Shown: positions 3,239-22,935, counted from the first letter of the stretch. The stretch is 38,057 bases of DNA from Minisyncoccota bacterium (GCA_028712605.1 JAQTPV010000002.1:1-38057), one strand, 5' to 3'. A program made the numbers and translations. The notes: generated from the sequence alone by a model not told the origin.

Positions 3239-3787
3239 TTGCCAAGGTTAAACTGCAAAGCAGTAAGCGTTCTAAATGTTATTCAATTTAAAGTCCCTCA
3301 ATTTTTAGAACGGGAATCAAATATCGCCTGGGGCCTATCGTTTAAAAATTTGGTAGTGGCCGTAGTTTTGGGATTTTCTCTATTCGGTCTTTTTTATGTT
3401 TTCCAGAGCCTTAAAATATTGTGGGCTTGGTTTATCCTTTTAGTGATAGTGATCGGCGCTTTTATAGTTTTTAATTTTGTAAAGATCGAAGGGCAAAGCG
3501 CCTTTGAGGTTTTTACCAACGCCGCCACCTTCGTTTTTTCCCGAAGGCTTTATATGTGGCAGCGGAAAGAAGGCGTAGCTCCGATTAGGCTGGCTCAAAG
3601 GTCCCGGCCAAAGAAAAAGGCCAAGGAGGCTGCGTTAAAGTTTGCGCCCAAGAGTCGTTTAGGGCTTTTGGGCTCCAAGATTGATATTAGTAGTATTATT
3701 GATCGTGAAGAATTTTGGGAGGATGTCACCTCTGAAGATGTTGCTTCTACTGATGAGGGGGAAGGGGCGTTAGGGGGAGAGGAGTAA
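3239..3787 (+). CDS. PrgI/VirB3-like small membrane protein of the T4SS-like block, with an acidic C-terminal tail
   Basis: FKVPQFLERESNIAWGLSFKNLVVAVVLG, then two TM helices and FVFSRRLYMW, matches my memory of the PrgI-family layout. It sits directly upstream of VirB4, as prgI-prgJ do. The start is uncertain: TTG at 3239, with no ATG nearby. Confidence 0.5.
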   Translation: MPRLNCKAVSVLNVIQFKVPQFLERESNIAWGLSFKNLVVAVVLGFSLFGLFYVFQSLKILWAWFILLVIVIGAFIVFNFVKIEGQSAFEVFTNAATFVFSRRLYMWQRKEGVAPIRLAQRSRPKKKAKEAALKFAPKSRLGLLGSKIDISSIIDREEFWEDVTSEDVASTDEGEGALGGEE

Positions 3788-3820: not shown

Positions 3821-4450
3821 ATGGCCTTGCCGAGTCAAAATTTTTTGGAGTTTAAACAAATTAAAGAGGGCGTGATTACTTTAAAGAATAAAGCCCTTAG
3901 AGGTATTTTGTTGGTTTCTTCTATTAATTTTGATCTTAAATCTGAAGAAGAACAGAATGCTATTATTTTTCAGTTTCAGAATTTTCTAAACTCCTTAGAT
4001 TTTTCTACGCAGATCATTATGCAGTCAAGAAGGCTCAATATCACCGGTTACTTTGAAAAGCTTAAGGAGTTTGAAAGTAAACAGAGCAACGAGCTTTTAA
4101 AAATTCAAACCGCTGAATACCGCAAATTTGTAGAGAGCCTAGTGGGTCGCGGCACCATTATGACTAAGCAGTTTTTTGTGGTGGTGCCCTATACCATCAC
4201 GGAAATGGATGCTATGACTGGGGCCATTGGCTTGCGTCAGAAGGCGGGCGTTGAAGAGGAAATCTTTCAAAGATGCCGCGATCAACTTTACCAAAGGATG
4301 GAATTTGTGGCCATTGGACTAAGAAGATGTAGTTTAAGTGTGATCCCCTTAACCACCCCAGAAGTTATTGAGCTTTTCTGGAGCTGGCATCATCCCAAGG
4401 AGGCTGAAATCGGTTATTACCCTGAAATCCTGCCAGAGCTTAGTAAATAA
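3821..4450 (+). CDS. VirB4-family ATPase, detached N-terminal domain (209 aa)
   Basis: FKQIKEGVITLKNKALRGILLVSSINFDLKSEEEQNAIIFQFQNFLNSLDFSTQIIMQSRR resembles the N-terminal module of Gram-positive/Tn916-Orf16-type VirB4 proteins. It is in the same frame as the next ORF and separated from it only by TAA plus two codons. Confidence 0.6.
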   Translation: MALPSQNFLEFKQIKEGVITLKNKALRGILLVSSINFDLKSEEEQNAIIFQFQNFLNSLDFSTQIIMQSRRLNITGYFEKLKEFESKQSNELLKIQTAEYRKFVESLVGRGTIMTKQFFVVVPYTITEMDAMTGAIGLRQKAGVEEEIFQRCRDQLYQRMEFVAIGLRRCSLSVIPLTTPEVIELFWSWHHPKEAEIGYYPEILPELSK

Positions 4451-4456
4451 TTTATT

Positions 4457-6268
4457 TTGTTTATGCCCTTTAACTTGCCCTTTGAGCTTCCTTTTTTAAA
4501 AAAGCGATCCAATATTGAGGAGCTTTTGCTTAAGCCAACTGAAATTAAGGCTGAAGATATTATCGCCCCCTCTTTAATTGAGATTCGGTCAAACTATATT
4601 AAATTAGGCGAGCGTTTTTCTCGCTCCTTTTTTGTGTTTTCTTACCCGCGTTATCTCGCGGCTGGCTGGCTGTCGCCGGTGATTAATTTGAATTACCCGA
4701 TTGACATGTCTTTGCATATCCATCCGGTTAATTCGGGAGACATTCTACGTCAATTGAGGAAAAAAGTCACAGAGGTTCAGGCGGAAATTCAAGAGAATGA
4801 AGAGAAGGGTAAAATCAGAGACCCGGTGCTGGAAACTGCATACGAGGACATCGAACAATTAAGAGATGAATTACAAACTGCCAGAGAAAGGGTGTTTCGG
4901 TTGGGTCTTTATTTAAATATTTACGGTGACTCTGAACAAGAGTTGCGGCAGGGGGAAACCTTATTAAGGTCTATTTTTGAGGCGCGCTTAATTTATATTA
5001 AGCCCAATCTGATGAAAGAAAAGCAAGGCTTTATTTCCGCAGCCCCCTATGGTTTAGACCAAATTTTAGTGCATACCCCCATGAACACTGCGCCTCTTTC
5101 CAGTATCTTTCCTTTTGTTTCTCCGGACCTTTCGGCCAACGAAGGCATTCTTTACGGCATTAACCGCCACAATAACTCCTTGGTTTTGTTTGATCGTTTT
5201 ACCTTAGAAAATGCTAATTTGGTGGTGTTCGCTAAATCTGGCTCCGGTAAAAGCTATTTCTGTAAGCTGGAAATTTTACGTTATTTAATGCAGGGCATTG
5301 ATGTGATTATTATTGATCCGGAAAACGAATACGAGTTTTTGGTTGACGGTGTGGGCGGTTCTTTTTTCAAGATTTCTTTAACCTCTGATCACCATATTAA
5401 TCCTTTTGAACTACCGCCTATGGTTGACCAAGATCCCAGAGATGTTTTAAGGTCTAACGTGATTAACTTAGTGGGCCTGTTAAGAATTATGTTAGGGGGC
5501 TTGTCGCCCGAGGAGGACGCTATTGTTGATCGGGCCATTGCTGAAACTTATGCGGCCAAAGACATTACCCCAGAAACCGATCCAACTGAATGGAGGGATA
5601 GGACCCCCCTATTGTCTGATCTTGAAAAGGTTTTAGCTGGCATGGAGGGCGCTCATTCGCTATTGGAGAGACTGCAGAAGTTTACTCAGGGTAGCTACGC
5701 CCAGTTCTTTAATAGTCCCTCTAACGTTTCTTTAGAAAAAGGCCTAATAGTTTTTGGCATTAGAGATGTGGAAGATGAATTGCGGCCTATGGCTATGTTT
5801 GTAATCTTAAGATATATTTGGGCTCAAATCAGAGCTTCTTTAAAGAAACGCATTCTGTTAGTGGATGAGGCGTGGTGGATTATGCAATATGAAGATGGCG
5901 CTTCCTTTCTATATGGTCTCTGTAAAAGAGCTAGAAAATATTGGTTAGGCGTTTCTACCATTACCCAGGACGTCTCTGACTTTATGAAATCTAATTATGG
6001 CAAGCCCATTATTACCAATTCGTCCCTGCAGTTTTTAATGAAGCAAAGCCCGGCAACAATTGGTTTAGTACAAAAAACTTTTAATTTAACCGAAGGCGAA
6101 AAAAATACATTATTAGAAAGCTCGGTTGGTGAAGGCGTGTTTATTGCTGGTCAAAAGCGTATTGCTATTAAGGTTGTAGCTTCTTATGTAGAAGATCAGA
6201 TTATTACCTCTGCCCCAGAAGAAGTAAAAAAGTTAAGAGCGGCCAAAAAGAGAATGACACAACTGTAG
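4457..6268 (+). CDS. VirB4/TraE-type conjugal-transfer-like ATPase (middle and AAA domains)
   Basis: IAPSLIEIRSNYIKLGERFSRSFFVFSYPRYLAAGWL is the VirB4 middle module. Walker A is VVFAKSGSGKSYF and Walker B is RILLVDEAWW, followed by TQDVSDF. The start is TTG 4457 or ATG 4463. Confidence 0.85.
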   Translation: MFMPFNLPFELPFLKKRSNIEELLLKPTEIKAEDIIAPSLIEIRSNYIKLGERFSRSFFVFSYPRYLAAGWLSPVINLNYPIDMSLHIHPVNSGDILRQLRKKVTEVQAEIQENEEKGKIRDPVLETAYEDIEQLRDELQTARERVFRLGLYLNIYGDSEQELRQGETLLRSIFEARLIYIKPNLMKEKQGFISAAPYGLDQILVHTPMNTAPLSSIFPFVSPDLSANEGILYGINRHNNSLVLFDRFTLENANLVVFAKSGSGKSYFCKLEILRYLMQGIDVIIIDPENEYEFLVDGVGGSFFKISLTSDHHINPFELPPMVDQDPRDVLRSNVINLVGLLRIMLGGLSPEEDAIVDRAIAETYAAKDITPETDPTEWRDRTPLLSDLEKVLAGMEGAHSLLERLQKFTQGSYAQFFNSPSNVSLEKGLIVFGIRDVEDELRPMAMFVILRYIWAQIRASLKKRILLVDEAWWIMQYEDGASFLYGLCKRARKYWLGVSTITQDVSDFMKSNYGKPIITNSSLQFLMKQSPATIGLVQKTFNLTEGEKNTLLESSVGEGVFIAGQKRIAIKVVASYVEDQIITSAPEEVKKLRAAKKRMTQL

Positions 6269-6298: not shown

Positions 6299-6673
6299 AT
6301 GAGTTCAGGCGGCGTATTTACCCCAGAAGGTTTTATCATGCTGGCAATAGCCGGATTTTTGGATTTCATAATGATGATTTGCATTGTGCTGACAGCGGCT
6401 TTTGGCGTGGGCCTTGTGGCCGGTAAAATTGTTTATGTTATTGGATTGACCATCATTACGCCATGGCAAATGTCTAAGTACGGATTTTTTAAGGGCTTGG
6501 GGGCTCGAAAGTCCGGCAATAAAAAATCAGCTTGGCAGGAAGCTAGAATGAAGAAGTTAAAGCAAAAATTCATAAGTAAACAGTTGCGCCGGTTAGCCTT
6601 TAAAATTGTGCCCATTCTTGGTGATTTTTATCCCTGGACTTATATTGTCTATGATACCTTGCAAAGCCCCTAA
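6299..6673 (+). CDS. Small integral membrane protein with a basic loop, function unknown, inside the T4SS-like operon
   Basis: 124 aa with hydrophobic helices (FIMLAIAGFLDFIMMICIVLTAAFGVGLVAG, IVYVIGLTIITPW). A Lys/Arg-rich segment follows, then a final hydrophobic stretch. Tight spacing with flanking genes. I recognise no family. Confidence 0.5.
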   Translation: MSSGGVFTPEGFIMLAIAGFLDFIMMICIVLTAAFGVGLVAGKIVYVIGLTIITPWQMSKYGFFKGLGARKSGNKKSAWQEARMKKLKQKFISKQLRRLAFKIVPILGDFYPWTYIVYDTLQSP

Positions 6674-6690
6674 TTATTAAAGGATATCCA

Positions 6691-9600
6691 ATGTATAGGC
6701 ATATTAAAAAAGTATTTTGGGGGACGATTCTAATCGTCGTTTTTTTACTTTGGGCGGCACCAATTTTAGCAGCATCAACCAATGAGATTCAGCCGTCGCC
6801 CTTAGAGCTGCAGTATCCCAAAATACCAGGCTTAGATGAGCTCCAAGCAGGGCAGCCTTTAATTTTTTACGTTAAATATTTTTTAAACTTATTTTATATC
6901 ATAGCCGCTGGCATAGCGGCTGGCGCTTTGATCTGGGGCGGTTTGATGTATTTAACCAGTAGCCAGTGGCCCAATAACCTCATTAAGGCTCGCGCCATCA
7001 TTAATAGATCACTTTTGGGTTTAGCTATTTTGCTGTGCTCTTACTTATTTTTAATTATTATTAACCCGGGCCTTCTGGTGTTTGATATAAAGGTTCCTCC
7101 AGCCCGACTTACGCCCACCGCACCAGCCTCTGCCTATAAATGCCAAGTGACCTTTACTTATGCGGCCGGCTTGAGTGTAGCTGAAAATGTTTTAAACGAA
7201 TTAACTCAGCAGGCCACGGAGCTTGACGATAAAGGGGAAAAGCAGTCTCGGTTTTTAGTAGACGAAAAAGGCGATATTAAAAGAGACAAAGACGGCGAAT
7301 TGATACCAATATTGGCTGCCGAAGAACCATTCTATGACACTTATCGTTTTTTGGTTGAGGCCCAGCAAATCAGTGAGGAATTGCAGAAGGCTATGAAGAA
7401 ATGCTCTTGCGGCAATACTCTTTTTCACATTGACGCTTTAACAGGTGATTGTCTGCCTGGGATGGAGAAAAAAGAGGCCGAAGCATTTATTAAACAAAAC
7501 CAGAATAAATATAAGGATAACCCGGGACAGGTAGAATGTTTAACTCGTTGTAGTGATTGTTTGCAGAAGGGCTGCGATTTCAAGAAATTAAAAGAGTTGA
7601 GAGATAAGCTTCAAGCCTTATTGGGAGAGGAGATAAAGCTCACTACGGCGGAGCAGCAGCAAGCCCAAGTCAATAATCTGCAAACAGGGCAACAGACGAA
7701 AACGTTACGTTCTCAAACAGCCAAGTTTGCCTTAACGCGATTGGATTATTTAAGAAAAACCCTAGAGGATAATGCCAATGAGTTTTACATCAACAATGCG
7801 GAAGGGTTCTTTGAAACAGATTTTAGGCTCCAGCAGCAGGATTTAATAGCTCAAGGGTGTGATGTGAAGGTCCAAACACCGGAGGTTTTGCAGTCAGCCA
7901 CAGCCAAGAGGCAAATTCCCCTTGAGGCCAGCAACGATCAAATAAATACAAAAGTTGTTTCAGCAAGCAAGTGGACTACTTATTTTAAAGGCTTTTTGGA
8001 TTTAGTGCTTGGCAAGAGCCAGGAGGTTAAAGCCCAAAAGCCAGCTATCTATTTTGACCCTACTGGTTTTTATGGCTGGTTTGATGCTCCTAGCTGGATT
8101 ATGCCTCCTGAAATTATAAACCATAACAGGCAAGTTGAATTGGATGCCAGCCGAGCGAACTTTACAGCGGTTATATTACAAATGTCGTTAGAAGATTTAG
8201 AAAAAATATTCCAGCAATGCCTATCGTCGGCCTTCCAATCGGGAGGATTTAAAATAACTTATCAGGAAATGGAGACGATAGTTAAGATGGCCATGAAGGA
8301 GATTGACAGCAACATCATTGATACTTTAATGGGCAAGAAAGAGGCTCTAGCTGCGTTAGTTGGTAAAACAATCAAAGACGAAAATAAAAATTCTTATGGG
8401 GCCAATTGGGTCAGCTCCGTTGATGCTTGCCAGAAAAAATGTATTGAGGCTTACTTGGGTACTGGCAAGCCAAATACAGCCGATGAAGAAGTCAGAAAAT
8501 ACACCGATAAGTGCAAGGAGCAGTGCTGGGTTTTGCCTCCTAACTTTTTTTCCAACTTGATTACAAGTTTTTTAGCCAGCAATCTTGAAAGCCATTTGCC
8601 AGATACCATACAAAATTTTCTAAACAGCACTTTTAGGGAGTGGGCCTTTAAAGATGATTTGAACAGTAAGTTAGATGCTGAAGCTATAGATTTAATTGGC
8701 AGGACCGCCAATAAAGCCTTAACAGAGAGCTTTGCTAAGCAAATCCCAGTTATTCAAAAAACCTTAGACCAAAAATTACGCGATACAAAATACCTAAGCA
8801 CAGTCATAAAAGCCTTAGATAAGATAGACAAGTTCGTGGCTTCCAGTACCGCTGGTATGCTTGAGAATTTAAATGTTCTGGAAAAGGGTACGGCTGGAGC
8901 TATTGCTGGGTATATCGGGAACAAGGCAGGCCAGCCATTGGACAAGCTCGTTGAAGGATACAAAAGCGATCACCCGGAATACTTTTCCGAATATAATTTG
9001 AAGGATTGCGATAAGATTTTAACCACAGGGCAAACTTTAAAAAGCGCCAAAAGTAACAAAAACATTTGCGACCTTAGCAGTCCCTTAACAGAAACACAGG
9101 TGGCTAATGAGCAAATTAGATGCTTAAAATTGTCTCCCCAAGAAATCACTGGTTTAAGGGGCTACCTTGGTGTTGGGGACATAAATGTATCAAGGAATGG
9201 GAATGAATACGGGCCCGATGTTGGCGAGGGCATGATAACTTGGGGGGTGTGCAGGTCCGCTAAAGAGGAACGAGAGAATATTTGTAGGGCCGCTGGCTAT
9301 TGCTGGCAGCCAAGCGGGGAAGATTCAAAAACTTACGAATGCCAAGGGTGCAAGTATAAATATGTCTTTGACGGGGACAATTATAAAATTAGTTCTCAAG
9401 ATGTTAAAAAGGCCGTGATATCTGGCACGGTAAACTTTATGGGTGGGCTTTTTTCGGCCTTTTTGCAAACGATTACGTACGCCGCCGTGAAGTATGCTGA
9501 AGTGTGGGTGCAAGACGAAGTGCTGACCCCCTTAAGGCCGTTTATAAGTCAGCTCCAGGTTTGGCAGAAAGAATTTAATCAATTTTTGCAGGAGGGGACA

Positions 9601-12600
9601 ATTAGCGATATCTTGCCCACCTTTGTTACTAACACCTTGCAAAGCAGTGCCGACACAGCGTTAAAGAATATTTGCAATGCCTATCAAAACAAACAATCTA
9701 TACAGGTTGTAAAGCCGTTTAATTTTGGTGATGTGGTTAAGTGGGGCGAGGATGAAAAAGAAGTGAGCTCTAAAGGTTTGGTTTTAGATTATGAAACCTG
9801 GAATTTTGGAAACCCCAATGACCAAAGCAAGTGGAGTATTGGCTCTTCTTCCTGCAATATTTACAATACCTTGCATACAACGCCCATGGGCCAGTTAGAT
9901 AAAATTAAGCACTGCAAGAAAAAAGCTGATGGAACCCAAGAGTGCAAAACCTTAGCTGAATTTTTAAATACCGACATTGAAGATTTAATAAACTCTCTTG
10001 ATACTCACTGTAATGATGATCTAAGGGCGGGCAAGGAGTGCCGAACTTTTAAAAGCTACCTTGAGGATCCTATTGAGCAATGGGTTTTTGGAGGGAAAAT
10101 ATCAAAGTTTCTTAAGGGCAATATAAAACAGATGGTTTGCGGAGAGCTATTAGATAGGGATTTTGGAATTGCCCTTGATACAAAAAAAGAAACCTTAGAT
10201 AAGTTTTGCGATGGTGTCAGGCTTGCTCCCTCTGGAATAGTTGCTACTGCAGCAAACATAAGAAGCATGAAGGATAAAACGAGAAGCCAGAAAGCTCAAG
10301 AATTAAGGGGTAAGGGCCTTGGCTTTTTCCCTCTTATTGATAAGGAAAAAGCCCAAGGCATCACTGATGCTCAAAGAATTTCCTGTTATATAAATTATTA
10401 TGCTTGCCATAATCCATTACAGTCTTTCCAAAGGCAAATTGGCAATACCCTATCGCAAATGCTGGCCTTGAGCTGCAATATAGTTGATACAAGGGTTAAG
10501 ATGGGGGGGTTGGATTGCAAGAATTGGGACAGCCCAGATTTTATCAAAACTAATTTAGGGAAGGATTGGCAGCCCTACTGTGAGATTTGCGATTTGATGG
10601 AAAATAAAAATGGCTCTTATCTTATCATAAGGGCTGTTGTTGAATCTTACTTTGGGGATAAACCAAAAGACGCCCAAAAGAGAAAAGAAGAAATAAATAC
10701 TTATGAGTGGGTTTGCTCAATGGCTCCCGATTGGTGTAATGAGGCCAAGGAGGTGGCTAAAGAAAGAGGCATAAGCGCCAACGAAATTATACTTTATACG
10801 GACATAGCCAGTCTTCCGCAGGACGTTGAGGCAGCCGGTAAAATCTTTATTGCTAACTTAACAGATCAGGGCCAAACCATAAATCAATTTTTAGTTAAAA
10901 TTCCAGATGGGATCATAAAATCTTTGGGTATTGATAAAGACACAAATAAAGGGGAGGCTACCTTGTTGAAAGGGAAAGGAGAGGGATCGGATAAAAACTT
11001 TTTAAGCCGAACGCCTTATCAATTTTTGCACGATGATGTTTGCGCAAAAATTGAAAAAGATTACAAAGAAAATCATAAGCAGTATACTTTTGAGGCCTTA
11101 AGGACAGGCGAGCTTAAAAAGCTTCCCAAAAATGCTTTGCCATATTCAGTGGAGGGCTTAGCTGAAGTTACAACCGCTGACGTTTTTAAGGCTTTAAGCG
11201 ACCTGGATGTTGATGTGGTTGGGATTGACCCCGAGGAATTAATCGCCTATTCAACCTGCTTGTCTTTGGATTATTCTCCAGCAGAAATAATGGGCTTGTC
11301 TTCCACTATGGAGCACTATGTTAATCCTCCAGAATATAGAATACTGTTTAGGCTGGTTCGCGACAATTTGTCTGATGACGAAATGCCCAAGGCCTTATCG
11401 CAGCTTTTAGACTTTATGCTTAATCAAACGCCAACCGGCGTTATGAAAAGCCTGGGCTTTTATTTAACCAACAACAATACCATTGGCATATTTTCCATAG
11501 ACTTTCAAAAATGGGCAATCAACACCGATAACACTGCCAGAAAAACGGAGATTCAGGGGAGTTTAAGCTCTGGCAGAATCAGCAGCAGCTTGAAACCTAT
11601 TTTGGAGGTTCAGAAAGTTATTCCTTTTGAGGATGAAAATCCCAATATAACTTTAGTGAAGATAGATAAAACAACCTTTCCTGGCTTGGCTGATTTAACA
11701 GTAGAAGAAAAATCAGGGTTACAAAATATCTGGCAAGTTAACGTCAATGGTCAAGACACAAAGTATAAAATATTTCAAAAAACGAGCTCTGTGGATGTTT
11801 ATTTTTATCCAGATGTTAATGGGCAGACAATTATTGCAGCAGCTGACTTTTTAGACACTAAAATAGGTTCTTTAATATCGCAGCAAACCAATAAGACTTT
11901 AGTTGAGCTTCTGATGGGAGAAAACGGCAAGAAGAAATTGTGCTCTGATTTGAAGTGCGAGGAGTGGGCGATGATTCAAAAACTTTTTGATAAAAGCCTG
12001 TTGGCTATGATTTCAGAGAACATAAAAAATCCGCTGTTTAGCGATGAATTATTGAAAAAACTAATGAGCCCCAACTTTTCAGTTATGAATTATTTGGCTG
12101 AAAAATATCCAATACTGAAAAAGCCATATTTTGACGTACTGTTTAACAAGTTGCCAAAAGAATGGCAGACTGATTTTGCGGCCAGCTATTACGGAGCAAG
12201 TAAAAGGAAAGAGGCCTTTGACAATTCGGTGGATAAGGCGGTTTCGGCTGTGCAAAAAACAGTCCAAGAGGGTTTTGATACAGCCTTAATAGAGGCCCCG
12301 AATTGGCTTTGGGATAAAATCGCTGGACTTTGGAATAAAAAGATGGGTGAAAATTTCAGCAATAATGTGAGCGGCACTTGCCGAGAGGTTAATACTGACT
12401 CTGTTTGCGATAAGGATAATTTAAAAGAAGTTTATAGGGAAACAATACAACCGGACGGCTCCCTTAAAAAGGAATGTTGTTCAACTGGCCAGCCCTTAGT
12501 ATGTGATCCAAGGTGCAGGGTTAAGCCAGGGCAAGGAACTTGTGCTTTTGAAAAAGGTGAGGTTTTGGAAAAAGGAGCTTTAGTTGGTGGTCAAAAAGTT

Positions 12601-12918
12601 GATGCCTGCTGTTTTAAGGGATGTCAGCAATGCAGAATGGCTAATGCCAGAGAGGTTGTGAATGGCAAGTGCCCTACGGCAGGGGAAGAATTAAAAGAAG
12701 CCAAAGATGCCAATGGAGAAACGATAAAACTTTGCTGTTCCAAAAGAACCCAGCGGGACTCTTACGAAAAAGGCGTCAAGATCGGAGAGAAATGTTGTTT
12801 ATCTGTGACCGACTGCATTACTAATCAGTTCGCGGACGGACTTTCCATTTTAGCTGAAATGATTGCTAAGAATGCGATACCAGTCAGTTCGTTAAGAGAT
12901 TTGCCTTTGAATAAATAA
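6691..12918 (+). CDS. Giant (2075 aa) surface protein: N-terminal VirB2/TrbC-like T4SS pilin hairpin fused to a ~1940-aa Cys-containing ectodomain
   Basis: An uninterrupted 6.2 kb ORF. Signal peptide VFLLWAAPILAAS is followed by two hydrophobic helices around a short basic loop (IIAAGIAAGALIWGGLMYLTSSQWPNNLIKARAIINRSLLGLAILLCSYLFLIIINP). The remainder is hydrophilic with many Cys motifs and no enzymatic motif I recognise. Confidence 0.75.
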   Translation: MYRHIKKVFWGTILIVVFLLWAAPILAASTNEIQPSPLELQYPKIPGLDELQAGQPLIFYVKYFLNLFYIIAAGIAAGALIWGGLMYLTSSQWPNNLIKARAIINRSLLGLAILLCSYLFLIIINPGLLVFDIKVPPARLTPTAPASAYKCQVTFTYAAGLSVAENVLNELTQQATELDDKGEKQSRFLVDEKGDIKRDKDGELIPILAAEEPFYDTYRFLVEAQQISEELQKAMKKCSCGNTLFHIDALTGDCLPGMEKKEAEAFIKQNQNKYKDNPGQVECLTRCSDCLQKGCDFKKLKELRDKLQALLGEEIKLTTAEQQQAQVNNLQTGQQTKTLRSQTAKFALTRLDYLRKTLEDNANEFYINNAEGFFETDFRLQQQDLIAQGCDVKVQTPEVLQSATAKRQIPLEASNDQINTKVVSASKWTTYFKGFLDLVLGKSQEVKAQKPAIYFDPTGFYGWFDAPSWIMPPEIINHNRQVELDASRANFTAVILQMSLEDLEKIFQQCLSSAFQSGGFKITYQEMETIVKMAMKEIDSNIIDTLMGKKEALAALVGKTIKDENKNSYGANWVSSVDACQKKCIEAYLGTGKPNTADEEVRKYTDKCKEQCWVLPPNFFSNLITSFLASNLESHLPDTIQNFLNSTFREWAFKDDLNSKLDAEAIDLIGRTANKALTESFAKQIPVIQKTLDQKLRDTKYLSTVIKALDKIDKFVASSTAGMLENLNVLEKGTAGAIAGYIGNKAGQPLDKLVEGYKSDHPEYFSEYNLKDCDKILTTGQTLKSAKSNKNICDLSSPLTETQVANEQIRCLKLSPQEITGLRGYLGVGDINVSRNGNEYGPDVGEGMITWGVCRSAKEERENICRAAGYCWQPSGEDSKTYECQGCKYKYVFDGDNYKISSQDVKKAVISGTVNFMGGLFSAFLQTITYAAVKYAEVWVQDEVLTPLRPFISQLQVWQKEFNQFLQEGTISDILPTFVTNTLQSSADTALKNICNAYQNKQSIQVVKPFNFGDVVKWGEDEKEVSSKGLVLDYETWNFGNPNDQSKWSIGSSSCNIYNTLHTTPMGQLDKIKHCKKKADGTQECKTLAEFLNTDIEDLINSLDTHCNDDLRAGKECRTFKSYLEDPIEQWVFGGKISKFLKGNIKQMVCGELLDRDFGIALDTKKETLDKFCDGVRLAPSGIVATAANIRSMKDKTRSQKAQELRGKGLGFFPLIDKEKAQGITDAQRISCYINYYACHNPLQSFQRQIGNTLSQMLALSCNIVDTRVKMGGLDCKNWDSPDFIKTNLGKDWQPYCEICDLMENKNGSYLIIRAVVESYFGDKPKDAQKRKEEINTYEWVCSMAPDWCNEAKEVAKERGISANEIILYTDIASLPQDVEAAGKIFIANLTDQGQTINQFLVKIPDGIIKSLGIDKDTNKGEATLLKGKGEGSDKNFLSRTPYQFLHDDVCAKIEKDYKENHKQYTFEALRTGELKKLPKNALPYSVEGLAEVTTADVFKALSDLDVDVVGIDPEELIAYSTCLSLDYSPAEIMGLSSTMEHYVNPPEYRILFRLVRDNLSDDEMPKALSQLLDFMLNQTPTGVMKSLGFYLTNNNTIGIFSIDFQKWAINTDNTARKTEIQGSLSSGRISSSLKPILEVQKVIPFEDENPNITLVKIDKTTFPGLADLTVEEKSGLQNIWQVNVNGQDTKYKIFQKTSSVDVYFYPDVNGQTIIAAADFLDTKIGSLISQQTNKTLVELLMGENGKKKLCSDLKCEEWAMIQKLFDKSLLAMISENIKNPLFSDELLKKLMSPNFSVMNYLAEKYPILKKPYFDVLFNKLPKEWQTDFAASYYGASKRKEAFDNSVDKAVSAVQKTVQEGFDTALIEAPNWLWDKIAGLWNKKMGENFSNNVSGTCREVNTDSVCDKDNLKEVYRETIQPDGSLKKECCSTGQPLVCDPRCRVKPGQGTCAFEKGEVLEKGALVGGQKVDACCFKGCQQCRMANAREVVNGKCPTAGEELKEAKDANGETIKLCCSKRTQRDSYEKGVKIGEKCCLSVTDCITNQFADGLSILAEMIAKNAIPVSSLRDLPLNK

Positions 12919-12920
12919 CC

Positions 12921-15900
12921 ATGATAGGCTTTAAAAGACAAAAATTAAAAAAGGTTATCAGCTTAGTTGTGGGGCTTTCGGTTTTGTTGGAAATTCTTTT
13001 GCCATTGCAGGAAGCAAGGGCCGGTTGGTTTGAAGATTTGATGGGCAAATTCACCAAGGCCTTGCCTCTGCCGGATAATTTGGACTATGAAAATAATGGC
13101 AATATTACGTTCGGGACTTGGTTTAAATTTTGTCCTTTCACTACTTCTGCTGCATGTAACGACCCTGATTGTGTGAAAGCGGATAAGTGTGAAAATGATA
13201 ATGGTTGCAAAAATCAGATAACTTGCAAAAATTCCGAAATAAGATTTTGCAGCAAGGGGGGGGTGTGTGCTTGCGCCGGTTGTAATGATGAAGAAAATTT
13301 TGAAGTTAAACTAAATGGGACATCTGAAATTGACGGACAAAAAGTTTCCAATTATATTTGTAAGAATAAAAAAAAGCCGAGTGAAACAGCTTGCCCAATT
13401 ATTAATGAATCACTTGAATGCGCTAAGAGGAATAAATTTCCTCCAGTTACCTTGCCTAATGGGCAAGCGGATACGGAGTGCTATAAATGCTCCAATGTTT
13501 TGAATGCAATCCAAACAAGTGATAGTTCCCACAAAACAGTTATTTTTGATGAAACGACCCAAAGCTACAAATTGCCCAACTATATCTTGCCCGCAGAATG
13601 CGAATTGAAAATGCTTGCGGGTCCAACGGGCGAAACCGAAAGCAAAAAAGAGGAAAGATTGGCTAAGGCCAGATCTTGTTTGGAGCTTGAGCAGCTGCAA
13701 AGGGAGGCAGGCCAGGCTGTTTTTTCTGCCAAAAAGCTTTACAATGCCACCGACCCGTTTTCTTCCTGCCAGTTTTTAGGCACTTGCAAAACCTCTTGTT
13801 TTTTAAAGTTTGGAGAAATGTCTTATACCATCACTTTAGTTGATGTTTTAAAAAGTATAACGCCCACCGGCTATCTTTTGTGGGCGCAAAGGATTTACAG
13901 TATCGTTAAGGTGATTCAAAAAGCTAAGTCCCTGGTGGACACAGCCAAATCTTTTTATAAGGCGGTTGACACGTTGGTCAACAAATTAGAAGAACTTGTT
14001 TATAACACCAAGGCCCTTTACGATTCTTTTAAAAAAATTGGGCTTAAATGGTCAGATCCTGGTAGCGGACTGGTTGGTATCATAGATGATTTTGCTTCGG
14101 GCTTGGAAAACTTTGGGATTGCCAAGTCCGAGTCCCTGTCAACCATTGATGTTATTGGCCAGAACTTAAGGAATAATATAAAGGCTGATTTGATGACGAA
14201 AGATAGCGTGAGCTTTCTTTTCAGCGACAACCAAAACAGGGCGAAATTAAATGAGGCCTTAACTCCTTTGTTTTTATCTTTAAAAAGTACAAATACTATA
14301 CTGGATGAAGTTATCAAAAATACTTTAACCGTGCCCTCACGGCAATATAAACAACAAGAATGCTCCGGCAACCCGCCTGGCCCAATGAACCTAGGAGACC
14401 AATGCCTTAATTGTTTTACTTGTCGTACCTACGATGCCTATCAGCTTCAGCCTAGCACGGGTTATGCTCTTTACAGTGATAGATGCAAGAATCTGCATAG
14501 CGAATATCCGCACTTTTGTCCTGTGGTTAAGCGCTCTATTAATGATTATGCCGGTTGGGACTATATTTGTAATCCTTTGTTTAACCCGAATACAGAAGAG
14601 GACATAAAGAGCCGATACGAAGCTTATTTTCAGGCTGGGAATGTTGTAAAGTTGCAAAATTTGACCGACGAAGGTAAGGAATTAGTTTTAGAGCGCCATG
14701 CTGGCGAGCCAGACCCCGACTATCAAAGCGAAGTTGTCCCAATCAAGGTACCGTATAATTATCAAATTAACCCACCGCAGGATGAAGTGTTTTGTTCCAT
14801 ACCAAGTCGCATTAAGCCTAGGTTCCAAACAACAGGGCCAGCCCAGGCGGGAGATACCAGGAATTGGTTTGAAATTTACCAAACAGCGGCCGGCAAAATA
14901 ATGCGGCTTAAGAACGGCTTAGCTAACATCGTAAGTGACATTAAAGACTATAATAGCGGTCCTTTCAGGTTTACCGGCAGCCTCGCAGTTATTAATAACA
15001 ATATATATTCATCTCAAAAATTAATTTACGACATTAAAAATGAAATTCGTGTTTTAGATTTAACTAACCTAAAGTTAAAGGGTGATTTTGATAATAGATG
15101 CAAGAATAAAACTAAAGATTGTGCTAAATACCCCTGCAGTATAGAAGAGCAAGCATGCTTCGGCACTCCATACTGGCAAGAGTACGGTTGGTATGAGGCA
15201 ACCTTTCCAAGCGGGAATCCAATTCCCAAGGATGCTTGTTTGAATAGTTGGCAAGCCGTATACGGGCCTGACGCTAAAAAAAATGGCTATCAGTCAGATT
15301 TAATGCAGGTTGACTGGGAGACCCAAATAGAAAATTTATCTGCCTCTGTCATTAACTTGGAACAGATGATGAATGGCCTCCCGAGTTGTTTAAGTGCCCC
15401 CTGCTTATCCCCCAATGATGCGGCTATTATATTCTGGCTTAATGGGGCTAAAAATAATGTTGGCAGTTTGACTAACACATTTATCTCTGGCCTTAAAAAA
15501 GAAATTTGTCCTGCCGGGGCCTATAACGATTGCCTGGATTATTGCAATGGCGATAATTATAAGAAGACTTATTCAAGCTGCAGGACGGCTTGTTCAGGGT
15601 TTAGTCCAGCCTCGGGGGCTGTGAATGCCTGCAGGGATTACTGCAAGGACAGGTGCGACGGGAGCAGTTCTTGCTCGGTGTCTAGATGTAAAACCGCCTG
15701 CGGTAGGGGCGATGATGCATGCCCTCAAGACCCCTTTGCGAAGTATAACCTTGAGGCTAATTTGAAAAGTTTTCTGGATAGTATCGCAGCCATTAGCGAT
15801 CGTTTTTTGACGATTCAGAACGTTTGGAATCAGCAATCGCCAGGCTCCCCTCCACAGCCAGACGGAAGGCCGAGAGCAGAGCTTGATGTGGCTGAAACAT

Positions 15901-18206
15901 ATACTTGGAGAGTAAAAAGGACCATTGAATTGTCAAAAGAGATAATTGGGTTTTTGTCGGCCGCCAAGAGCTCTTGGGAACAATTAAGAAGCGCCTATTA
16001 TGATTTGAAAGGTAATGCTTCAATTAAAAATTTAACAAATGCGTGGGGTGTTTTGTTTGAGGGGGACAACAAAATGGATATTATTGAGAGAGTGGAAAAG
16101 ACAGTTGGTAAAGGATATGTATGCAATGCAGGGGCGGAGGGATTTTTGCCGAAAATTAAGTGTTTTGAGGAGAAAATCGGCAAAAAGTTTGGCCAGGAAA
16201 GCAATGGCGATCCCGATGGGCTTTACGAATTTTTTGTGAAAATATCTAAAATTGAAGACATGTTGTTTAATTTGGACGGGCCCACAGTTACGATTAAAGA
16301 TAAGGTTTATACTTCAATTAAAAATTTAGTTTACGGTTTAGAACCAATGATTGATATGGATAAAAAAACAAACGACAGCGATTATCTAAGTAAACTAGCC
16401 GACAATCCGATTTCTTACTTGGACGAATCTTTTACGAAAATTGATTCTCAAGTCAAGCAAAATGAGGGTTGGCTTGGAGATGCTATGCAAGGATTAAATA
16501 GCTTCTTTCACGATGCTTACCAGGAGTCGGTTAAACTGGTTGGGGAGCAGACAGCCACCTTAAACCGCTTGGTGTTTGGAGAGGATAATTTAAGGCAGGC
16601 CTGTAATGGTTTAGATGTTGTGCTTCAGCAGAACCCCGAGGATTTTAAAGCAGCTTGCTTAGCTGTTAAAACAAATTTAACAAGCGACAGCAAGTTAAAT
16701 GGGCTATGCACTAACTTCTCTGTATTTGGGGCCAGCCTCGGCAGTAAAACTGAATTGGTTAACGAGATCAGCAAATTAAATAAACAATGGAATAGCCCGC
16801 CAGAATCCGATCCTAAGAAGAAGCCCTGTAAGGACGTAGACGGTAGCGATGCCAGATGGCCTGGATGTCAAATAGTTAAGATGAAGAGAGATAATTTAGA
16901 GAGTATAAAATGTTTAAAATGTCAGTGTTCGGACAATGGTTGCGAATGCTCTAACTCCGAAACCAATTGCAAGAATCTAAGTGATGAGGAGTATGCTAAT
17001 TTTGGCAGGCAATGCAGTTATCTGCAAAATCAGAAAGAAACGGAGAAAGCTTGTGGGCAATTTGGAATTTTGTCAGCCGCCCTGCAGAACAAATGTTCTG
17101 ATATCAACACCCTCTTTAGCAGTTTTTGTGCTGACCAGGCTTGCTCTGACAACGAAGGCTGCATTAAATACTGTAAAGATAAAATAAAGGTGGGCGATCA
17201 AGAAATTAACGGTTCCGGAAGATGCAATAATTTAAAAGATAGCATTGATAAGATTTGCGATAAGGGCTATCAGGCTGGTTGCCCCGACTCGGGCCTGCCT
17301 AATTTATTGCAAGACGACCAGGCTGTTTTGAGGGACAAATTAAAAAATGTTTGTTCAACCAAAATCACAGACGTCAAAAGCAATTTGGATAAGGTCATGC
17401 GGGCCTTCTCCATCGTTATTGGCATTAAGTCTTTTACGGCCATAGCCCAGCCGGATATAAAGCTTTCGTGGAAAAAAGGGGTTGAGTTTAACGGCTTTCA
17501 GGGGCCCAAAGACTTATGGGCTGACACTAAGAAAACTATTGAGGAGGCCTATAATTTAAAAGACTCTCTTTTAAATATTAAAAAAGACCTCAAGAATGCT
17601 TACAGCTCAAAAATGCCAGATGACGCCTTGGATGCTAAGGGGGGATTTAAATTTGACCCTCCCACTTGCGAAAAAGAGCCGGCCAATAGCTATTCAGCCA
17701 TAACCAAGGTCACTAAAACGGGGCCGAACGGAGGGCCTGTTTGTCCGGATGCTGACGAATACTTCCAGCTTTTGGATGCTCATTTTTCGCAAATTAGACA
17801 GCACCTCTATCAGATTGATTTAGAGCAAAAAAATATGAGGCGGTTAAAGTTGGGGCCTTTAAGTTTGGACATTATCAGAACAGCCCCCAATGTTTTTCCT
17901 TCGGTGAGCGAAGTATATAATACAGCCTCGGACTTAAAACAAAAGGCTCAATTGCTTTGGGCTATGGGGAACGCTGTTGATTTTGCTCAAAAAAATTGCA
18001 CTTGCGGGCAAAGTGTTTGTGATATCTGCCTTTATGAGAAAGACAACGGTGCCGGGAAGAAGGTTTGTTGGGCCCCCTTATGTGTTTCTGGGGTGCCATT
18101 GACGCCAACTCCCTTCACACAGCCCTTTTGTTATGTGGCCTATATAATGAGGGAGCCGATGAAATCAATGGCCGAATCTTTGGAAAATCAATTGCTTGGT
18201 AAATGA
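12921..18206 (+). CDS. Giant (1761 aa) secreted cysteine-rich protein, unknown function
   Basis: The ORF starts 2 nt after the previous stop. Signal peptide is KKVISLVVGLSVLLEILLPLQEARAG. I hand-counted about 80 Cys, in ladders and CX3C pairs. No recognisable catalytic motif. Confidence 0.75.
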   Translation: MIGFKRQKLKKVISLVVGLSVLLEILLPLQEARAGWFEDLMGKFTKALPLPDNLDYENNGNITFGTWFKFCPFTTSAACNDPDCVKADKCENDNGCKNQITCKNSEIRFCSKGGVCACAGCNDEENFEVKLNGTSEIDGQKVSNYICKNKKKPSETACPIINESLECAKRNKFPPVTLPNGQADTECYKCSNVLNAIQTSDSSHKTVIFDETTQSYKLPNYILPAECELKMLAGPTGETESKKEERLAKARSCLELEQLQREAGQAVFSAKKLYNATDPFSSCQFLGTCKTSCFLKFGEMSYTITLVDVLKSITPTGYLLWAQRIYSIVKVIQKAKSLVDTAKSFYKAVDTLVNKLEELVYNTKALYDSFKKIGLKWSDPGSGLVGIIDDFASGLENFGIAKSESLSTIDVIGQNLRNNIKADLMTKDSVSFLFSDNQNRAKLNEALTPLFLSLKSTNTILDEVIKNTLTVPSRQYKQQECSGNPPGPMNLGDQCLNCFTCRTYDAYQLQPSTGYALYSDRCKNLHSEYPHFCPVVKRSINDYAGWDYICNPLFNPNTEEDIKSRYEAYFQAGNVVKLQNLTDEGKELVLERHAGEPDPDYQSEVVPIKVPYNYQINPPQDEVFCSIPSRIKPRFQTTGPAQAGDTRNWFEIYQTAAGKIMRLKNGLANIVSDIKDYNSGPFRFTGSLAVINNNIYSSQKLIYDIKNEIRVLDLTNLKLKGDFDNRCKNKTKDCAKYPCSIEEQACFGTPYWQEYGWYEATFPSGNPIPKDACLNSWQAVYGPDAKKNGYQSDLMQVDWETQIENLSASVINLEQMMNGLPSCLSAPCLSPNDAAIIFWLNGAKNNVGSLTNTFISGLKKEICPAGAYNDCLDYCNGDNYKKTYSSCRTACSGFSPASGAVNACRDYCKDRCDGSSSCSVSRCKTACGRGDDACPQDPFAKYNLEANLKSFLDSIAAISDRFLTIQNVWNQQSPGSPPQPDGRPRAELDVAETYTWRVKRTIELSKEIIGFLSAAKSSWEQLRSAYYDLKGNASIKNLTNAWGVLFEGDNKMDIIERVEKTVGKGYVCNAGAEGFLPKIKCFEEKIGKKFGQESNGDPDGLYEFFVKISKIEDMLFNLDGPTVTIKDKVYTSIKNLVYGLEPMIDMDKKTNDSDYLSKLADNPISYLDESFTKIDSQVKQNEGWLGDAMQGLNSFFHDAYQESVKLVGEQTATLNRLVFGEDNLRQACNGLDVVLQQNPEDFKAACLAVKTNLTSDSKLNGLCTNFSVFGASLGSKTELVNEISKLNKQWNSPPESDPKKKPCKDVDGSDARWPGCQIVKMKRDNLESIKCLKCQCSDNGCECSNSETNCKNLSDEEYANFGRQCSYLQNQKETEKACGQFGILSAALQNKCSDINTLFSSFCADQACSDNEGCIKYCKDKIKVGDQEINGSGRCNNLKDSIDKICDKGYQAGCPDSGLPNLLQDDQAVLRDKLKNVCSTKITDVKSNLDKVMRAFSIVIGIKSFTAIAQPDIKLSWKKGVEFNGFQGPKDLWADTKKTIEEAYNLKDSLLNIKKDLKNAYSSKMPDDALDAKGGFKFDPPTCEKEPANSYSAITKVTKTGPNGGPVCPDADEYFQLLDAHFSQIRQHLYQIDLEQKNMRRLKLGPLSLDIIRTAPNVFPSVSEVYNTASDLKQKAQLLWAMGNAVDFAQKNCTCGQSVCDICLYEKDNGAGKKVCWAPLCVSGVPLTPTPFTQPFCYVAYIMREPMKSMAESLENQLLGK

Positions 18207-18231: not shown

Positions 18232-20127
18232 ATGTTAGGGATAGACTGGAGACAAAATACAACCTTAGTTTTATTCTGTATCGTGGCTGTTTTGGCTGCA
18301 GCTTTAATTTATTTGTTACCGAGATTACCAAGGGAATCAAGGGCTCAAGCCCAAAGCTTTACCGATATTACCCCTGATTTATCTGGGGATATTGTCTGCG
18401 ATGAGGTTATACCTATCGGCAGTGCTTTTGATCACACCAAGGCTCTGATGGACGATATCTACCAAGAATACAAGAACGCTCAATCACAGCTAGACTTATC
18501 TGTGGCTAATCTGACTTCTCAAATTGCTTCCTTAACTTCTCCGAGCGACGCTAAGCAGGTGTGTGACTTTAGTGCTTGTAACCCGCCGGTTGACCCGGTC
18601 ACCAAGCAGGTCAGAAATCCGGGGGCTCCTTTGGCCCTTAATTTTAACAGTATGTTTGCTGGCAATTTTAACCTGCTTAGTTGGACGATACCATCTTGTG
18701 CTCAAACCCAATGCGTGGGTAGTCCGTGTGCTGATCTAACCTTACGGATTGAGGAGCTTAAGAATTTAAAAGAAACATTCCAGAAGATGCAGGAAAGGGT
18801 GCACAGCGCCCTTTATGAGAAAGTTGAACCAATTGGCTATGACTATTTGAGCTCCAATGGCAGAGAAAAGGCCACGGATAAAATCACAAGGCCCGATAAG
18901 ATAGAAAGAGAAATTGAACTTGCCAGGGGCTGGCTAACTCCAGCCATCGGGCAAAGAAGGTCGTGCGCCATGACCGCGATTGATCAAAAAAGAGCTGATG
19001 ATGGGGAAGGAGGAATGTGGGGGCCTGCCTTGTGCAGAGAGGCTCGAGAGAGCAATATGTACTGGCCAAGGCCTTGGTCTGAAAAGTGTGATCAAAAGTG
19101 CACTGACGACGCTAATCCAAGCAAGGAGTGTAAGGACTGCCTGGCTGACAGCCAGAGCAAGGGCGGAACTTTTAGTGGTATACCTAATTTAGATTTTTTC
19201 AAGGGCTCCATGTCATTTTTGGCCACTATCAACTACCAGATTTATGGGATGTGTCCTAATGTATGTAAAAATGAGCTTGATGAAAAATGTGTTGATTGCT
19301 TGTGCAAAGTCGGAACCCGCAAAAATGATTATACCCAAGAGGAATGCTTAGCTTGGCTTTGCGGAGGGAGCGCTGATAACTGGGTTTGTTGTCGTGAAAC
19401 TGGTGTTTCCAGATGGCAGACCCCTAATGATTTTGCGAATATGGAGTTCTATTTTCCAACCTTAACTGGTACGATGAGAGAAAGGGCGAGAGATGTTTAT
19501 AAAATAATAAATGAAATTAAAGCCGCGAACCCAACCGTCAGCATTGTTAATTTGGATGCAGCCTTTACTTTAGGGATTATCGCGAAGGAAACAAGGATAT
19601 CAGAGTATCTCGGGGTCACCTTGTCTGAAGTGAAAAGCATAAAAAATAAGGACCGAGAAGCGCTCACAACTATCACGAAAGAACTTAATTTGGATATGGA
19701 CAAAGTTTTAATATCCAGAGGTACCGACACGCAAAGCGGGGGAGCAATGGGCCCCATGCAGATAATGCCAAGCACCTGGCTGGATGTCAGGCAGCAAGCC
19801 AGTGATGCTAAGCTCACCGTTTTGAATCCCTGGGTTTTAAAGGATTCGTTAATGGGGGCTATGCTATACTTAGTAAAGCCATGTGGCGCTCTTGATAATG
19901 AAGAAACAGCAGCTAAAAAATACTTTAAGGGGCCGTATAGTAAGGACTTAGACGCCGCCGATGCTAAAGAGTATGGCGGGTCTGTGATGGCCTACCGAAA
20001 ATGTTTTGCTAAAATTATTGATTTAGGATGTTTTGAAGATGAAGATAAGCAAAATGCTGATACAAAGAAAATATGCAACGACGCTTCTTTGAAAGAAATT
20101 GATGAGTGTAAGGGTATAGTTAAATAG
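18232..20127 (+). CDS. Membrane-anchored Cys-rich protein with C-terminal SLT-like lytic transglycosylase domain (VirB1 analogue)
   Basis: N-terminal TM is TTLVLFCIVAVLAAALIYLL. The Cys-rich middle contains KCDQKCTDDANPSKECKDC and MCPNVCKNELDEKCVDCLC. The C-terminus has GIIAKETRISE (catalytic Glu context) and GGAMGPMQIMPSTW, resembling the GH23/SLT E-S ... GLMQ ... motifs. Confidence 0.6.
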   Translation: MLGIDWRQNTTLVLFCIVAVLAAALIYLLPRLPRESRAQAQSFTDITPDLSGDIVCDEVIPIGSAFDHTKALMDDIYQEYKNAQSQLDLSVANLTSQIASLTSPSDAKQVCDFSACNPPVDPVTKQVRNPGAPLALNFNSMFAGNFNLLSWTIPSCAQTQCVGSPCADLTLRIEELKNLKETFQKMQERVHSALYEKVEPIGYDYLSSNGREKATDKITRPDKIEREIELARGWLTPAIGQRRSCAMTAIDQKRADDGEGGMWGPALCREARESNMYWPRPWSEKCDQKCTDDANPSKECKDCLADSQSKGGTFSGIPNLDFFKGSMSFLATINYQIYGMCPNVCKNELDEKCVDCLCKVGTRKNDYTQEECLAWLCGGSADNWVCCRETGVSRWQTPNDFANMEFYFPTLTGTMRERARDVYKIINEIKAANPTVSIVNLDAAFTLGIIAKETRISEYLGVTLSEVKSIKNKDREALTTITKELNLDMDKVLISRGTDTQSGGAMGPMQIMPSTWLDVRQQASDAKLTVLNPWVLKDSLMGAMLYLVKPCGALDNEETAAKKYFKGPYSKDLDAADAKEYGGSVMAYRKCFAKIIDLGCFEDEDKQNADTKKICNDASLKEIDECKGIVK

Positions 20128-22875: not shown

Positions 22876-22903
22876 ATTGTATCAATTTGTAGAGTAGTGT
22901 CAA
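22876..22903 (-). promoter_or_regulatory. Near-consensus sigma70-type promoter for the 157-aa gene
   Basis: On the minus strand: TTGACA (22903-22898), 16-nt spacer, TACAAT (22881-22876), 21 nt upstream of the ATG at 22854. Confidence 0.55.
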
Positions 22904-22906
22904 AGG

Positions 22907-22935
22907 TTGACAGGCTACGTCAGATATGCTATAAT
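22907..22935 (+). promoter_or_regulatory. Perfect-consensus sigma70-type promoter facing the SPFH-like gene
   Basis: TTGACA (22907-22912), exact 17-nt spacer, TATAAT (22930-22935). The predicted leader to the ATG at 23074 is about 130 nt. Confidence 0.6.

Follow-up and report, generated by a model that had tools for sequence, protein, structure and literature searches.

The stretch of DNA considered here, referred to as the window, comprises 38,057 nucleotides of a Minisyncoccota bacterium (GCA_028712605.1 JAQTPV010000002.1:1-38057) and is a chromosomal segment of a Patescibacteria (candidate phyla radiation, CPR) genome. It contains two genes, A and D, whose products begin with a module related to the pilins of type IV secretion systems (T4SS) and continue into a very long tail. 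Both open reading frames (ORFs) lie as the sequence-only reading of this DNA had described them and the peptide strings quoted there are found in the translations, while the extensions behind the module, which had been put at about 1940 and about 590 amino acids (aa), measure 1936 and 588 aa. The two genes and their segments are listed below (TM, transmembrane segment; HMM, hidden Markov model; evidence in brackets).

6691..12918, +, gene A, 2075 aa: N-terminal T4SS-pilin module and 1936-aa Cys-rich orphan ectodomain (ORF, translation)
6691..6774, +, predicted signal peptide of gene A, aa 1-28, cleavage between ...PILA and AS (hydrophobic segment 7-33; AlphaFold2 helix 2-30)
6859..7080, +, pilin hairpin of gene A, aa 57-130: TM1, loop SSQWPNNLIKARAIINR (K99, R101, R106), TM2 ending INPGL (AlphaFold2, hhalign, HMM)
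7081..12915, +, ectodomain of gene A, aa 131-2075, with repeated CC/CxxC motifs in the last ~180 aa (no further TM; Cys counts per 200-aa bin)
20140..22302, +, gene D, 720 aa: N-terminal T4SS-pilin module and beta-rich, predicted beta-gamma-crystallin-like Greek-key ectodomain
20284..20493, +, pilin hairpin of gene D, aa 49-118: TM1, YLTSAGDTGRMGMARQR loop (three Arg), TM2 ending VDPKI (AlphaFold2, HMM)
21916..22122, +, insertion in gene D, aa 593-661, Gly/Ala-rich and hydrophobic (597-631), glycine zipper G610xxxG614xxxG618 (hydropathy)

The N-termini of the two proteins share one order of elements: a hydrophobic leader, an acidic stretch of ~25-30 aa in which E..YP occurs, a long hydrophobic helix with GG..YLTS at its end, a short K/R loop and a second hydrophobic helix. 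The AlphaFold2 model of residues 1-140 of A has helices at 57-89 and 94-124 separated by a 4-residue turn, with a predicted local distance difference test (pLDDT) score above 90 in the hairpin, and the model of D places the corresponding helices at 49-81 and 86-115. Hydropathy of the whole protein A gives a signal peptide and two TM segments and nothing further. In an alignment with free-standing pilins, the leader of A matches their signal peptides and keeps the small residue at -1; the cleavage site given above is a predicted one. The common signal peptide, helix, basic loop and helix that had been noticed by eye were recovered by hydropathy, by AlphaFold2 and by BLASTP, which aligned the N-terminal 200 aa of A and D with 34% identity over 100 aa (E 3e-12). 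Furthermore, when the 347 six-frame ORFs of the window with at least 40 aa were searched with phmmer --max, each module retrieved only the other (E 2e-10 and 3e-9), the next match having E 0.2 or worse; the similarity between A and D is therefore specific, and the window holds no third copy. This search and the pilin profiles also agree with the earlier remark that the window has no free-standing short pilin gene. The VirB2/TrbC-type pattern of a leader, two hydrophobic helices and a short basic loop is thus found in A and D by hydropathy, modelling and alignment, with cleavage predicted, whereas their size is not that of a mature pilin, which has ~70-130 aa and consists of the hairpin only.

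The relationship of the module to T4SS pilins was established with several profiles. An HMM of seven free-standing short pilins (113-136 aa) matched A with E 3.6e-12 and D with E 5e-18, and every orthologue tested also scored; because this HMM was built solely from short pilins, its match to A and D is not circular. When an A-type module profile (A and an orthologue) was compared with the same seven pilins by hhalign, the probability was 98.3% (E 2.6e-14, 126 columns). In the opposite direction, a profile of the two modules searched against 5.8 billion proteins gave 8 matches, all of them free-standing pilins of 113-198 aa belonging to PF18895 (T4SS_pilin), one of which also matched TrbC (PF04956). 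Published annotations of VirB2-like pilins in CPR rely on PF18895 (PMC12102498). Among 18 aligned relatives of the module, 16 match PF18895 and two match PF04956, and the relatives of D designated P0011-P0014, P0016 and P0017 carry precomputed PF18895 matches, P0012 being named 'pilin' by NCBI; A and D had no PF04956 match in the Pfam scan. The alignment also showed that the modules share the motifs GG..YLTSAGD, the A[KR] loop and LGL..L..SY with free-standing pilins. By profile and alignment, A and D belong to the CPR T4SS_pilin family (PF18895, VirB2/TrbC-like) as a fused subclass, in line with the proposal that very large exported proteins start here with a VirB2/TrbC-type hairpin as their N-terminal module. 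Another short hairpin of pilin-like character, from a monoderm system of the MPF-FATA type, is the Mbov_0395 family pilin-like conjugal transfer protein of Mycoplasma integrative and conjugative elements (NCBIfam NF045849), an 80-residue stand-alone protein to which D-type modules gave weak matches (E 0.007 and 6e-4; 16-19 bits against a cut-off of 40).

Genes A and D are the outer members of a cassette A-B-C-D, all on the + strand and tightly spaced, which directly follows the gene for a 124-aa membrane protein. The two inner genes are:

12921..18206, +, gene B, 1761 aa, exported, 4.5% Cys (80 Cys), signal peptide, no pilin module
18232..20127, +, gene C, 631 aa, 4.3% Cys (27 Cys), N-terminal anchor or signal, weak C-terminal lytic transglycosylase (SLT) match

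The same order was found in the syntenic loci L001, L003, L004, L005 (with the 3' part of A) and L013, L003 having two tandem D genes, and A and D keep their linkage to virB4 and virB6-like genes in every locus examined. In L001 the order rnpA, yidC, jag, PrgI-like, TraC-like, VirB4, small membrane protein, A, B, C, D is that of the window. An ORF identical to the 2075-aa one occurs in an independent Logan assembly, and more distant orthologues of A were found in L001 (P0009, 2037 aa, 39% identity, full coverage), L005 (51% identity, partial, the C-terminal 988 aa), L013 (assembly GCA_975960135.1; 1651 aa, 26% identity over the full length, E 6e-126, with a complete module that the short-pilin HMM matches at E 2e-15) and L004 (24% identity; its sequence starts within TM1 and the second half of the module is visible, in frame). 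The module is present in all three A orthologues whose available sequence extends into the N-terminal region (L001, L013 and L004). Moreover, in both proteins conservation is highest in the hairpin: identity in the hairpin versus the tail is 68% versus 40% for A orthologues, 45% versus 24% for a distant A, and 39-76% versus 25-52% for D relatives. Accordingly with this distribution, the most conserved patterns selected for scans of GTDB genomes fell inside the module; the scan with the A alignment gave 599 pattern matches, none of which was confirmed, and the scan with a 6-sequence D alignment found a Gribaldobacteria metagenome-assembled genome (MAG). The organism is related to Candidatus Gribaldobacteria, its closest named genome being a Candidatus Gribaldobacteria MAG from Lac Pavin, in which the D orthologue is 50% identical. 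A and D are conserved members of a four-gene cassette inside a chromosomal, origin-proximal T4SS locus.

Orthologues of B stand at the same position in L001 (1676 aa), L003 (2168 aa), L004 (1366 aa) and L013 (1307 aa). In L005 (Gribaldobacteria MAG JAPLWD010000045.1, 2997-8029) gene B is represented by three consecutive or overlapping ORFs of 631, 780 and 336 aa, which suggests that this record contains frameshifts or assembly errors; the C-terminal end of the D protein of L005 (P0012) is also divergent. Gene C has orthologues L001_630, L005_655, L004_346, L003_364 and L013_360. Its C-terminal ~230 aa (19400-20127), where PF01464 SLT matches with E 0.1, below threshold, are present in the window, L001 and L005 and absent from L003, L004 and L013 (346-364 aa). 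Pfam and NCBIfam searches of A, B and C gave only this weak SLT match in C, and B and C had no meaningful match among PDB sequences. The Cys content of B and C is unusual for a CPR genome, and neither has detectable relatives of known function. The three neighbouring genes A, B and C together encode ~4,300 residues of exported protein.

The T4SS genes of the locus surround the cassette:

3239..3787, +, PrgI/VirB3-like membrane protein (PF12666 PrgI, E 3.5e-4; orthologue L001_132)
3821..4450, +, TraC-like/TrsD-like protein, VirB4 N-terminal-domain-like (PF26593 TraC-like, matched by an identical L012 protein and by the orthologue in L001)
4457..6268, +, VirB4-type ATPase, 603 aa (PF19044 P-loop_TraG, E 2.5e-24; AAA_10; DUF87)
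6299..6673, +, membrane protein of 124 aa whose C-terminal half is basic (hydropathy; a 173-aa gene at the same position in L001)
24226..27144, -, VirB6-like polytopic protein, 972 aa (sub-threshold match to PF04610 TrbL/VirB6 at E 0.0024; several TM segments between aa 10 and 329)

The segment opens with rnpA, yidD, yidC and jag, and past the VirB6-like gene come KsgA and a LysM-M23 peptidase. Genes for VirB4, a PrgI (VirB3)-like protein, a TraC-like/TrsD protein and, with a weak match, a TrbL/VirB6-like protein, that is, the neighbours of a T4SS cluster, all lie within 20 kb, and likewise in the syntenic loci. The context agrees with that published for CPR T4SS loci, which are near the replication origin with RnpA and KsgA close by, and in which TrsD is the most abundant component (PMC12102498). 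The true start of the PrgI/VirB3-like gene is probably downstream of its TTG, and the VirB6-like protein has an orthologue, L003_809, 36% identical and at the same position. Pilin-profile searches found no similarity between the 124-aa membrane protein and the pilin module.

Beyond the hairpins, the two ectodomains differ. The tail of A has no sequence match in Pfam, NCBIfam or the PDB and groups only with its own orthologues in the clustering of tails. Its first ~100 aa contain a putative helix, Cys-knot, helix motif akin to one in the fused-pilin family of P0018 and P0019 (hhalign 78%, E 1.7e-5), a likeness that is only suggestive; a domain shared between the start of this tail and protein C was also considered and is not supported (hhalign 0.1%). 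Cysteines make up 2.9% of A (60 Cys) and 1.4% of D, next to the 4.5% of B and 4.3% of C, and 0.1% of the VirB6-like protein. The AlphaFold2 model of D has a mean pLDDT of 69, rising above 85 over aa 130-320, and in Foldseek its ectodomain matched gamma-crystallins with E 1.6e-4, probability 1.00 and template modelling scores of 0.54-0.56 on the target. It also matched single domains of microbial beta-gamma-crystallins (3hzb, root-mean-square deviation 2.4 A, 76 columns); the ectodomain has no Pfam Crystall match, and its place in the beta-gamma-crystallin superfamily is a candidate assignment. The hydrophobic insertion of D lies inside the last beta-rich domain, is predicted to be helical at low pLDDT, and is found in P0010 and P0011 only, being absent from P0014-P0017; a possible role is that of a host-directed loop able to insert into membranes.

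As to topology, A and D would have both ends outside, the loop in the cytoplasm and the tails outside the cell. This arrangement is suggested by the signal peptide with an even number of TM segments, the Cys-rich tails, the extracellular domain types found in related tails, and relatives with 2-14 modules placed head to tail (e.g. P0002), since each module of such an array must start and end on the same side of the membrane. On these predicted features a cytoplasmic position of the large domains, which would have contradicted the earlier view of them, was judged unlikely.

We then asked how widespread such proteins are. A HMMER scan with the module profile against 1.84 billion representatives returned 102,431 proteins at E <=1e-3, and the architectures of the best 150 of these, a ranking biased toward the query type, were surveyed: 42 have one N-terminal module followed by a tail of at least 200 aa (25 of the 42 have at least 500 aa), and ~100 have 2-14 tandem modules. 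The tails of these best 150 fall into a D-type family of 40 members, a second Cys-rich family of 10 and several singletons. Some members of the second Cys-rich family carry C39-like or M23 peptidase domains and one singleton has a lamin-tail domain; the cargo on the same module in other metagenomic proteins (P0018, P0147, P0150) includes Peptidase_C39-like, Peptidase_M23 and lamin-tail domains. The two ~2,000-aa proteins, A and P0009, are the largest fusions among those examined. Judged from these profile matches, the fused pilin architecture is widespread; the sequence-only reading had treated it as more exceptional than it is, as fused modules are common in public data and one orthologue is already an NCBI 'pilin'. 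Among the tandem proteins, 'poly-pilins' such as P0029 (1775 aa), P0043, P0061 and P0148 are single ORFs of 2-14 T4SS_pilin modules, and in P0029 and P0077 the first module matches TrbC PF04956 above threshold and the remaining modules match PF18895.

Nearly all fused modules, whatever their cargo, end TM2 with a motif of the type SSYLILxTINPQL, in which [NDS]P[QKEGS][LFI] lies exactly 38 residues after YLTS. The corresponding regions of the window read IINPGL (7054-7080) and IVDPKI (20470-20493), and relatives P0014-P0160 have it as well; most free-standing short pilins stop before it. It may act as a signal for exit or for processing. A sortase-type signal was considered, as NPQL resembles the sortase B motif NPQTN, and rejected: the motif is not C-terminal and a whole ectodomain follows it.

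A short free-standing pilin was found neither in the window nor in L001-L005 (~130 kb, both profiles; L005 through six large ORFs). In loci of Moranbacteria, Taylorbacteria, Saccharibacteria and Paceibacterota, used as positive controls, the A2 profile picks up 3-7 short pilin genes each; these are the arrays known from the literature.

We propose that A and D dock on the T4SS as subunits of its tip or stalk, where they would display domains for host contact and their hairpin would be used as VirB2 is; to this reading we give a probability of about 0.5. In this mechanism, A and D would be inserted by Sec and their leader removed by signal peptidase, leaving the hairpin in the membrane as in VirB2 propilins, with both ends outside, the K/R loop cytoplasmic and the 590- and 1,940-aa tails extracellular. 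The hairpin would dock on the VirB6-like/VirB3-VirB4 platform in the manner of VirB2 and be built into the short stalk or tip of a pilus-like tube, projecting the ectodomains toward a host cell. The host-contact end would be formed by the disulfide-rich giant A, probably with the exported B and C, and by the beta-gamma-crystallin-like D. A and D would thus take the role that VirB5-type tip adhesins or minor pilins have elsewhere and, in this lineage, replace the tandem short-pilin arrays of Saccharimonadia and other CPR classes. Since steric constraints make homopolymerisation of the giant implausible, few copies per machine are expected.

Several results weigh against this proposal. The anticipated match to a pilin HMM was obtained with the short-pilin HMM and hhalign and failed with PF18895 itself, whose direct matches to A (13.5 bits, E 0.081) and D (22.2 bits, E 1.5e-4) stay below its gathering score of 26.6 bits. 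In Foldseek, the 140-aa model with leader had a best match of E 0.64 in the PDB and no pilin among its matches, although a bare hairpin discriminates poorly; the module profile found nothing meaningful among PDB sequences, and tblastn with the D module found no match in 72,556 plasmids. The search for a major pilin covered the locus, not the genome, and a look for sequence that would extend the contig returned only short Logan fragments from the sample it came from. No experiment or structure has any PF18895 protein, fused or free, forming a filament or touching VirB6, and to our knowledge no precedent exists for a VirB2-type subunit that bears an appendage of 1,940 aa. Lastly, the module is also fused to unrelated enzymes, which a use of the hairpin as a generic anchor would fit equally well.

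Such an anchor, a pilin-derived hairpin tethering surface proteins N-out/C-out with neither polymerisation nor handling by the T4SS, is the alternative that we take most seriously, though we regard it as doubtful. It would account for the unrelated cargo behind the same module (beta-gamma-crystallin-like, Peptidase_M23, C39-like, lamin-tail and Cys-rich orphan tails), for the frequency of fusion (the 42 of the best 150 of 102,431 representatives), for a locus that has no major pilin and for the steric obstacle to polymerising a 2075-aa subunit. It leaves aside, however, that the hairpin is conserved above the ectodomains, that GG..YLTSAGD, the A[KR] loop and LGL..L..SY are kept where a plain anchor would not need them, and that virB4 and virB6-like genes accompany A and D at every locus examined. 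Rather unlikely, in our view, is that A and D are precursors from which cleavage at or near SSYLILxTINPQL would free a VirB2-like pilin, the missing major pilin, together with a secreted ectodomain. The motif 38 residues past YLTS in nearly all fusions, mostly beyond the end of free pilins, and the ~130 kb of syntenic loci with no short pilin gene would agree with it, and C-terminal processing of diderm T4SS pilins is established, the trimming of the TrbC (RP4) and VirB2 propilins being the analogy. Nevertheless, the cassette offers no protease candidate, the conservation of the motif in the best matches is partly circular given that the query profile contained it, and an N-P at the end of a helix could be a mere membrane-exit or helix-breaking motif.

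That A or D is the major structural pilin, with a giant domain on every subunit of the filament, is improbable. The locus has no free-standing pilin and the C-termini of conjugative pilins face outward in solved pili; but pilins of ~7 kDa pack closely in VirB2-type filaments, which would leave no room for a 200-kDa domain on each, and two fused pilins with two giant exported proteins per cassette suggest instead a hetero-oligomeric cap. An assembly or sequencing error that joined a small pilin gene to a large one, a danger of which the sequence-only reading was aware, has a negligible probability. It is favoured only by the general caution that metagenome frameshifts call for (gene B in three ORFs in L005), and it is contradicted by the identical ORF of the independent Logan assembly, by collinear orthologues at 39%, 26% over the full length and 24% from TM1 on that carry the module in frame, and by a D family with dozens of members of 300-850 aa. 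An alternative genetic code and a fused-gene artefact were rejected in the same way, the ORFs being open in table 11 and conserved across assemblies.

The proposal that A and D are docked tip or stalk subunits can be carried a step further, more tentatively and with somewhat less probability than the anchor. The VirB2-like hairpin could be a portable T4SS handling module: VirB4/VirB6 would extract hairpin-tagged proteins from the membrane and mount them on a pilus-like stalk or push them along it, and the ectodomain behind SSYLILxTINPQL would be delivered to the host surface. If true, this would be a new, pilin-fusion route of protein display or delivery that wholly replaces the conventional major pilin in this lineage. 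Its known cargoes would include adhesin-like giants rich in Cys, arrays of beta-gamma-crystallin type, and hydrolases of the M23 and C39-like types.

The closest known systems are the VirB2-like pilins of other Patescibacteria, which have been published as small, free-standing proteins encoded in tandem arrays of 2-11 genes (Southlakia epibionticum ML1, TM7x; Wang 2023, PMC10633639; Quinonero-Coronel 2025, PMC12102498). The T4SS, including these pilins, is essential for epibiotic growth in one genetically tested species (PMC10633639). Profiles and hhalign place the modules of A and D in the same protein family as these pilins, and the hairpin with its basic loop, preceded by a signal peptide, recurs in them; the locus, too, is of the same chromosomal, origin-proximal, relaxase-less monoderm type with PrgI, TrsD, VirB4 and VirB6. 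The differences here are that short genes are lacking in the locus, that two copies are fused to 590- and 1,940-aa ectodomains in the A-B-C-D cassette, and that this cassette also encodes two exported proteins rich in Cys, of which B, with 1761 aa, is giant. With the diderm VirB2/TrbC/TraA pilins (PF04956), which some relatives of the module match directly, A and D have in common the leader, two hydrophobic helices, short positive loop, VirB3/VirB4/VirB6 neighbours and, as predicted, both ends outside; the diderm proteins, however, have ~70-130 aa and are often trimmed or cyclised, whereas those of the window have 720 and 2075 aa and belong to a monoderm. Diderm conjugative pilins form long pili, polymerising together with phospholipid by way of an outer-membrane complex, and the assembly of VirB2/TrbC-type pilins into an extracellular pilus depends on VirB4 and VirB6.

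Other likenesses are functional or architectural. The role proposed for A and D is that of the VirB5/TraC/CagL tip adhesins, a few copies of which contact the target cell at the distal end of a T4SS stalk or pilus, but the parallel is limited to function: neither sequence nor fold revealed a relationship, and VirB5 proteins are soluble and helical, without a pilin hairpin. Minor pilins of type IV pili and type II secretion systems (GspK, CofB/TcpB) also combine a membrane module that enters the filament with a bulky capping or tip domain, yet they are an unrelated class with a single N-terminal helix, a prepilin peptidase and another assembly ATPase. In extended VirB6 proteins (PMC12857230) a core T4SS membrane component is likewise enlarged by very large hydrophilic domains, although in the polytopic VirB6 family and not in a two-helix pilin. 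The VirB6-like protein of the window has itself this 'extended VirB6' layout, with ~330 aa that contain the TM segments and, behind them, a C-terminal half of ~640 aa that is charged, hydrophilic and rich in Gln. The CPR 'Pam' pilus (bioRxiv 10.64898/2026.03.03.709456) is unrelated, as it consists of Ig-like pilins assembled by donor-strand exchange.

What was known before, then, are VirB2-like pilins in CPR T4SS and database entries of fusions, at least one of them named 'pilin' by NCBI; the layout is conserved but undescribed. Fused or large pilins, the A-B-C-D cassette and the NPQL subclass are not mentioned in PMC10633639, PMC12102498 or PMC12857230, nor are Gribaldobacteria and T4SS_pilin in the accessible part of the supplement of PMC12102498. 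The reviews consulted treat VirB2-family pilins as small subunits. The fused subclass ties the pilin hairpin physically to candidate domains for host contact and for attack on the host envelope, the related proteins carrying cell-wall hydrolases, which makes A and D concrete candidates for the distal end of a CPR T4SS and may show how these bacteria contact their hosts. For annotation, it should be kept in mind that a PF18895 'pilin' call can sit on a 2,000-aa protein and, conversely, that such giants can escape the HMM threshold, as the 2075-aa protein does with its 13.5 bits.

Two further features of these loci deserve mention. The VirB4 orthologue of L001, a syntenic JGI contig (5834-9442), has 1202 aa and contains an intein (Intein_splicing and LAGLIDADG_3), whereas the VirB4 of the window has none. 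Lastly, just downstream of the cassette, at 22876-22935, two near-perfect sigma-70-type promoters stand back to back, scoring 12/12 on the + strand and 11/12 on the - strand and both with a TG extension; the pair separates a 157-aa gene (-) from an SPFH/Band-7 gene (+).

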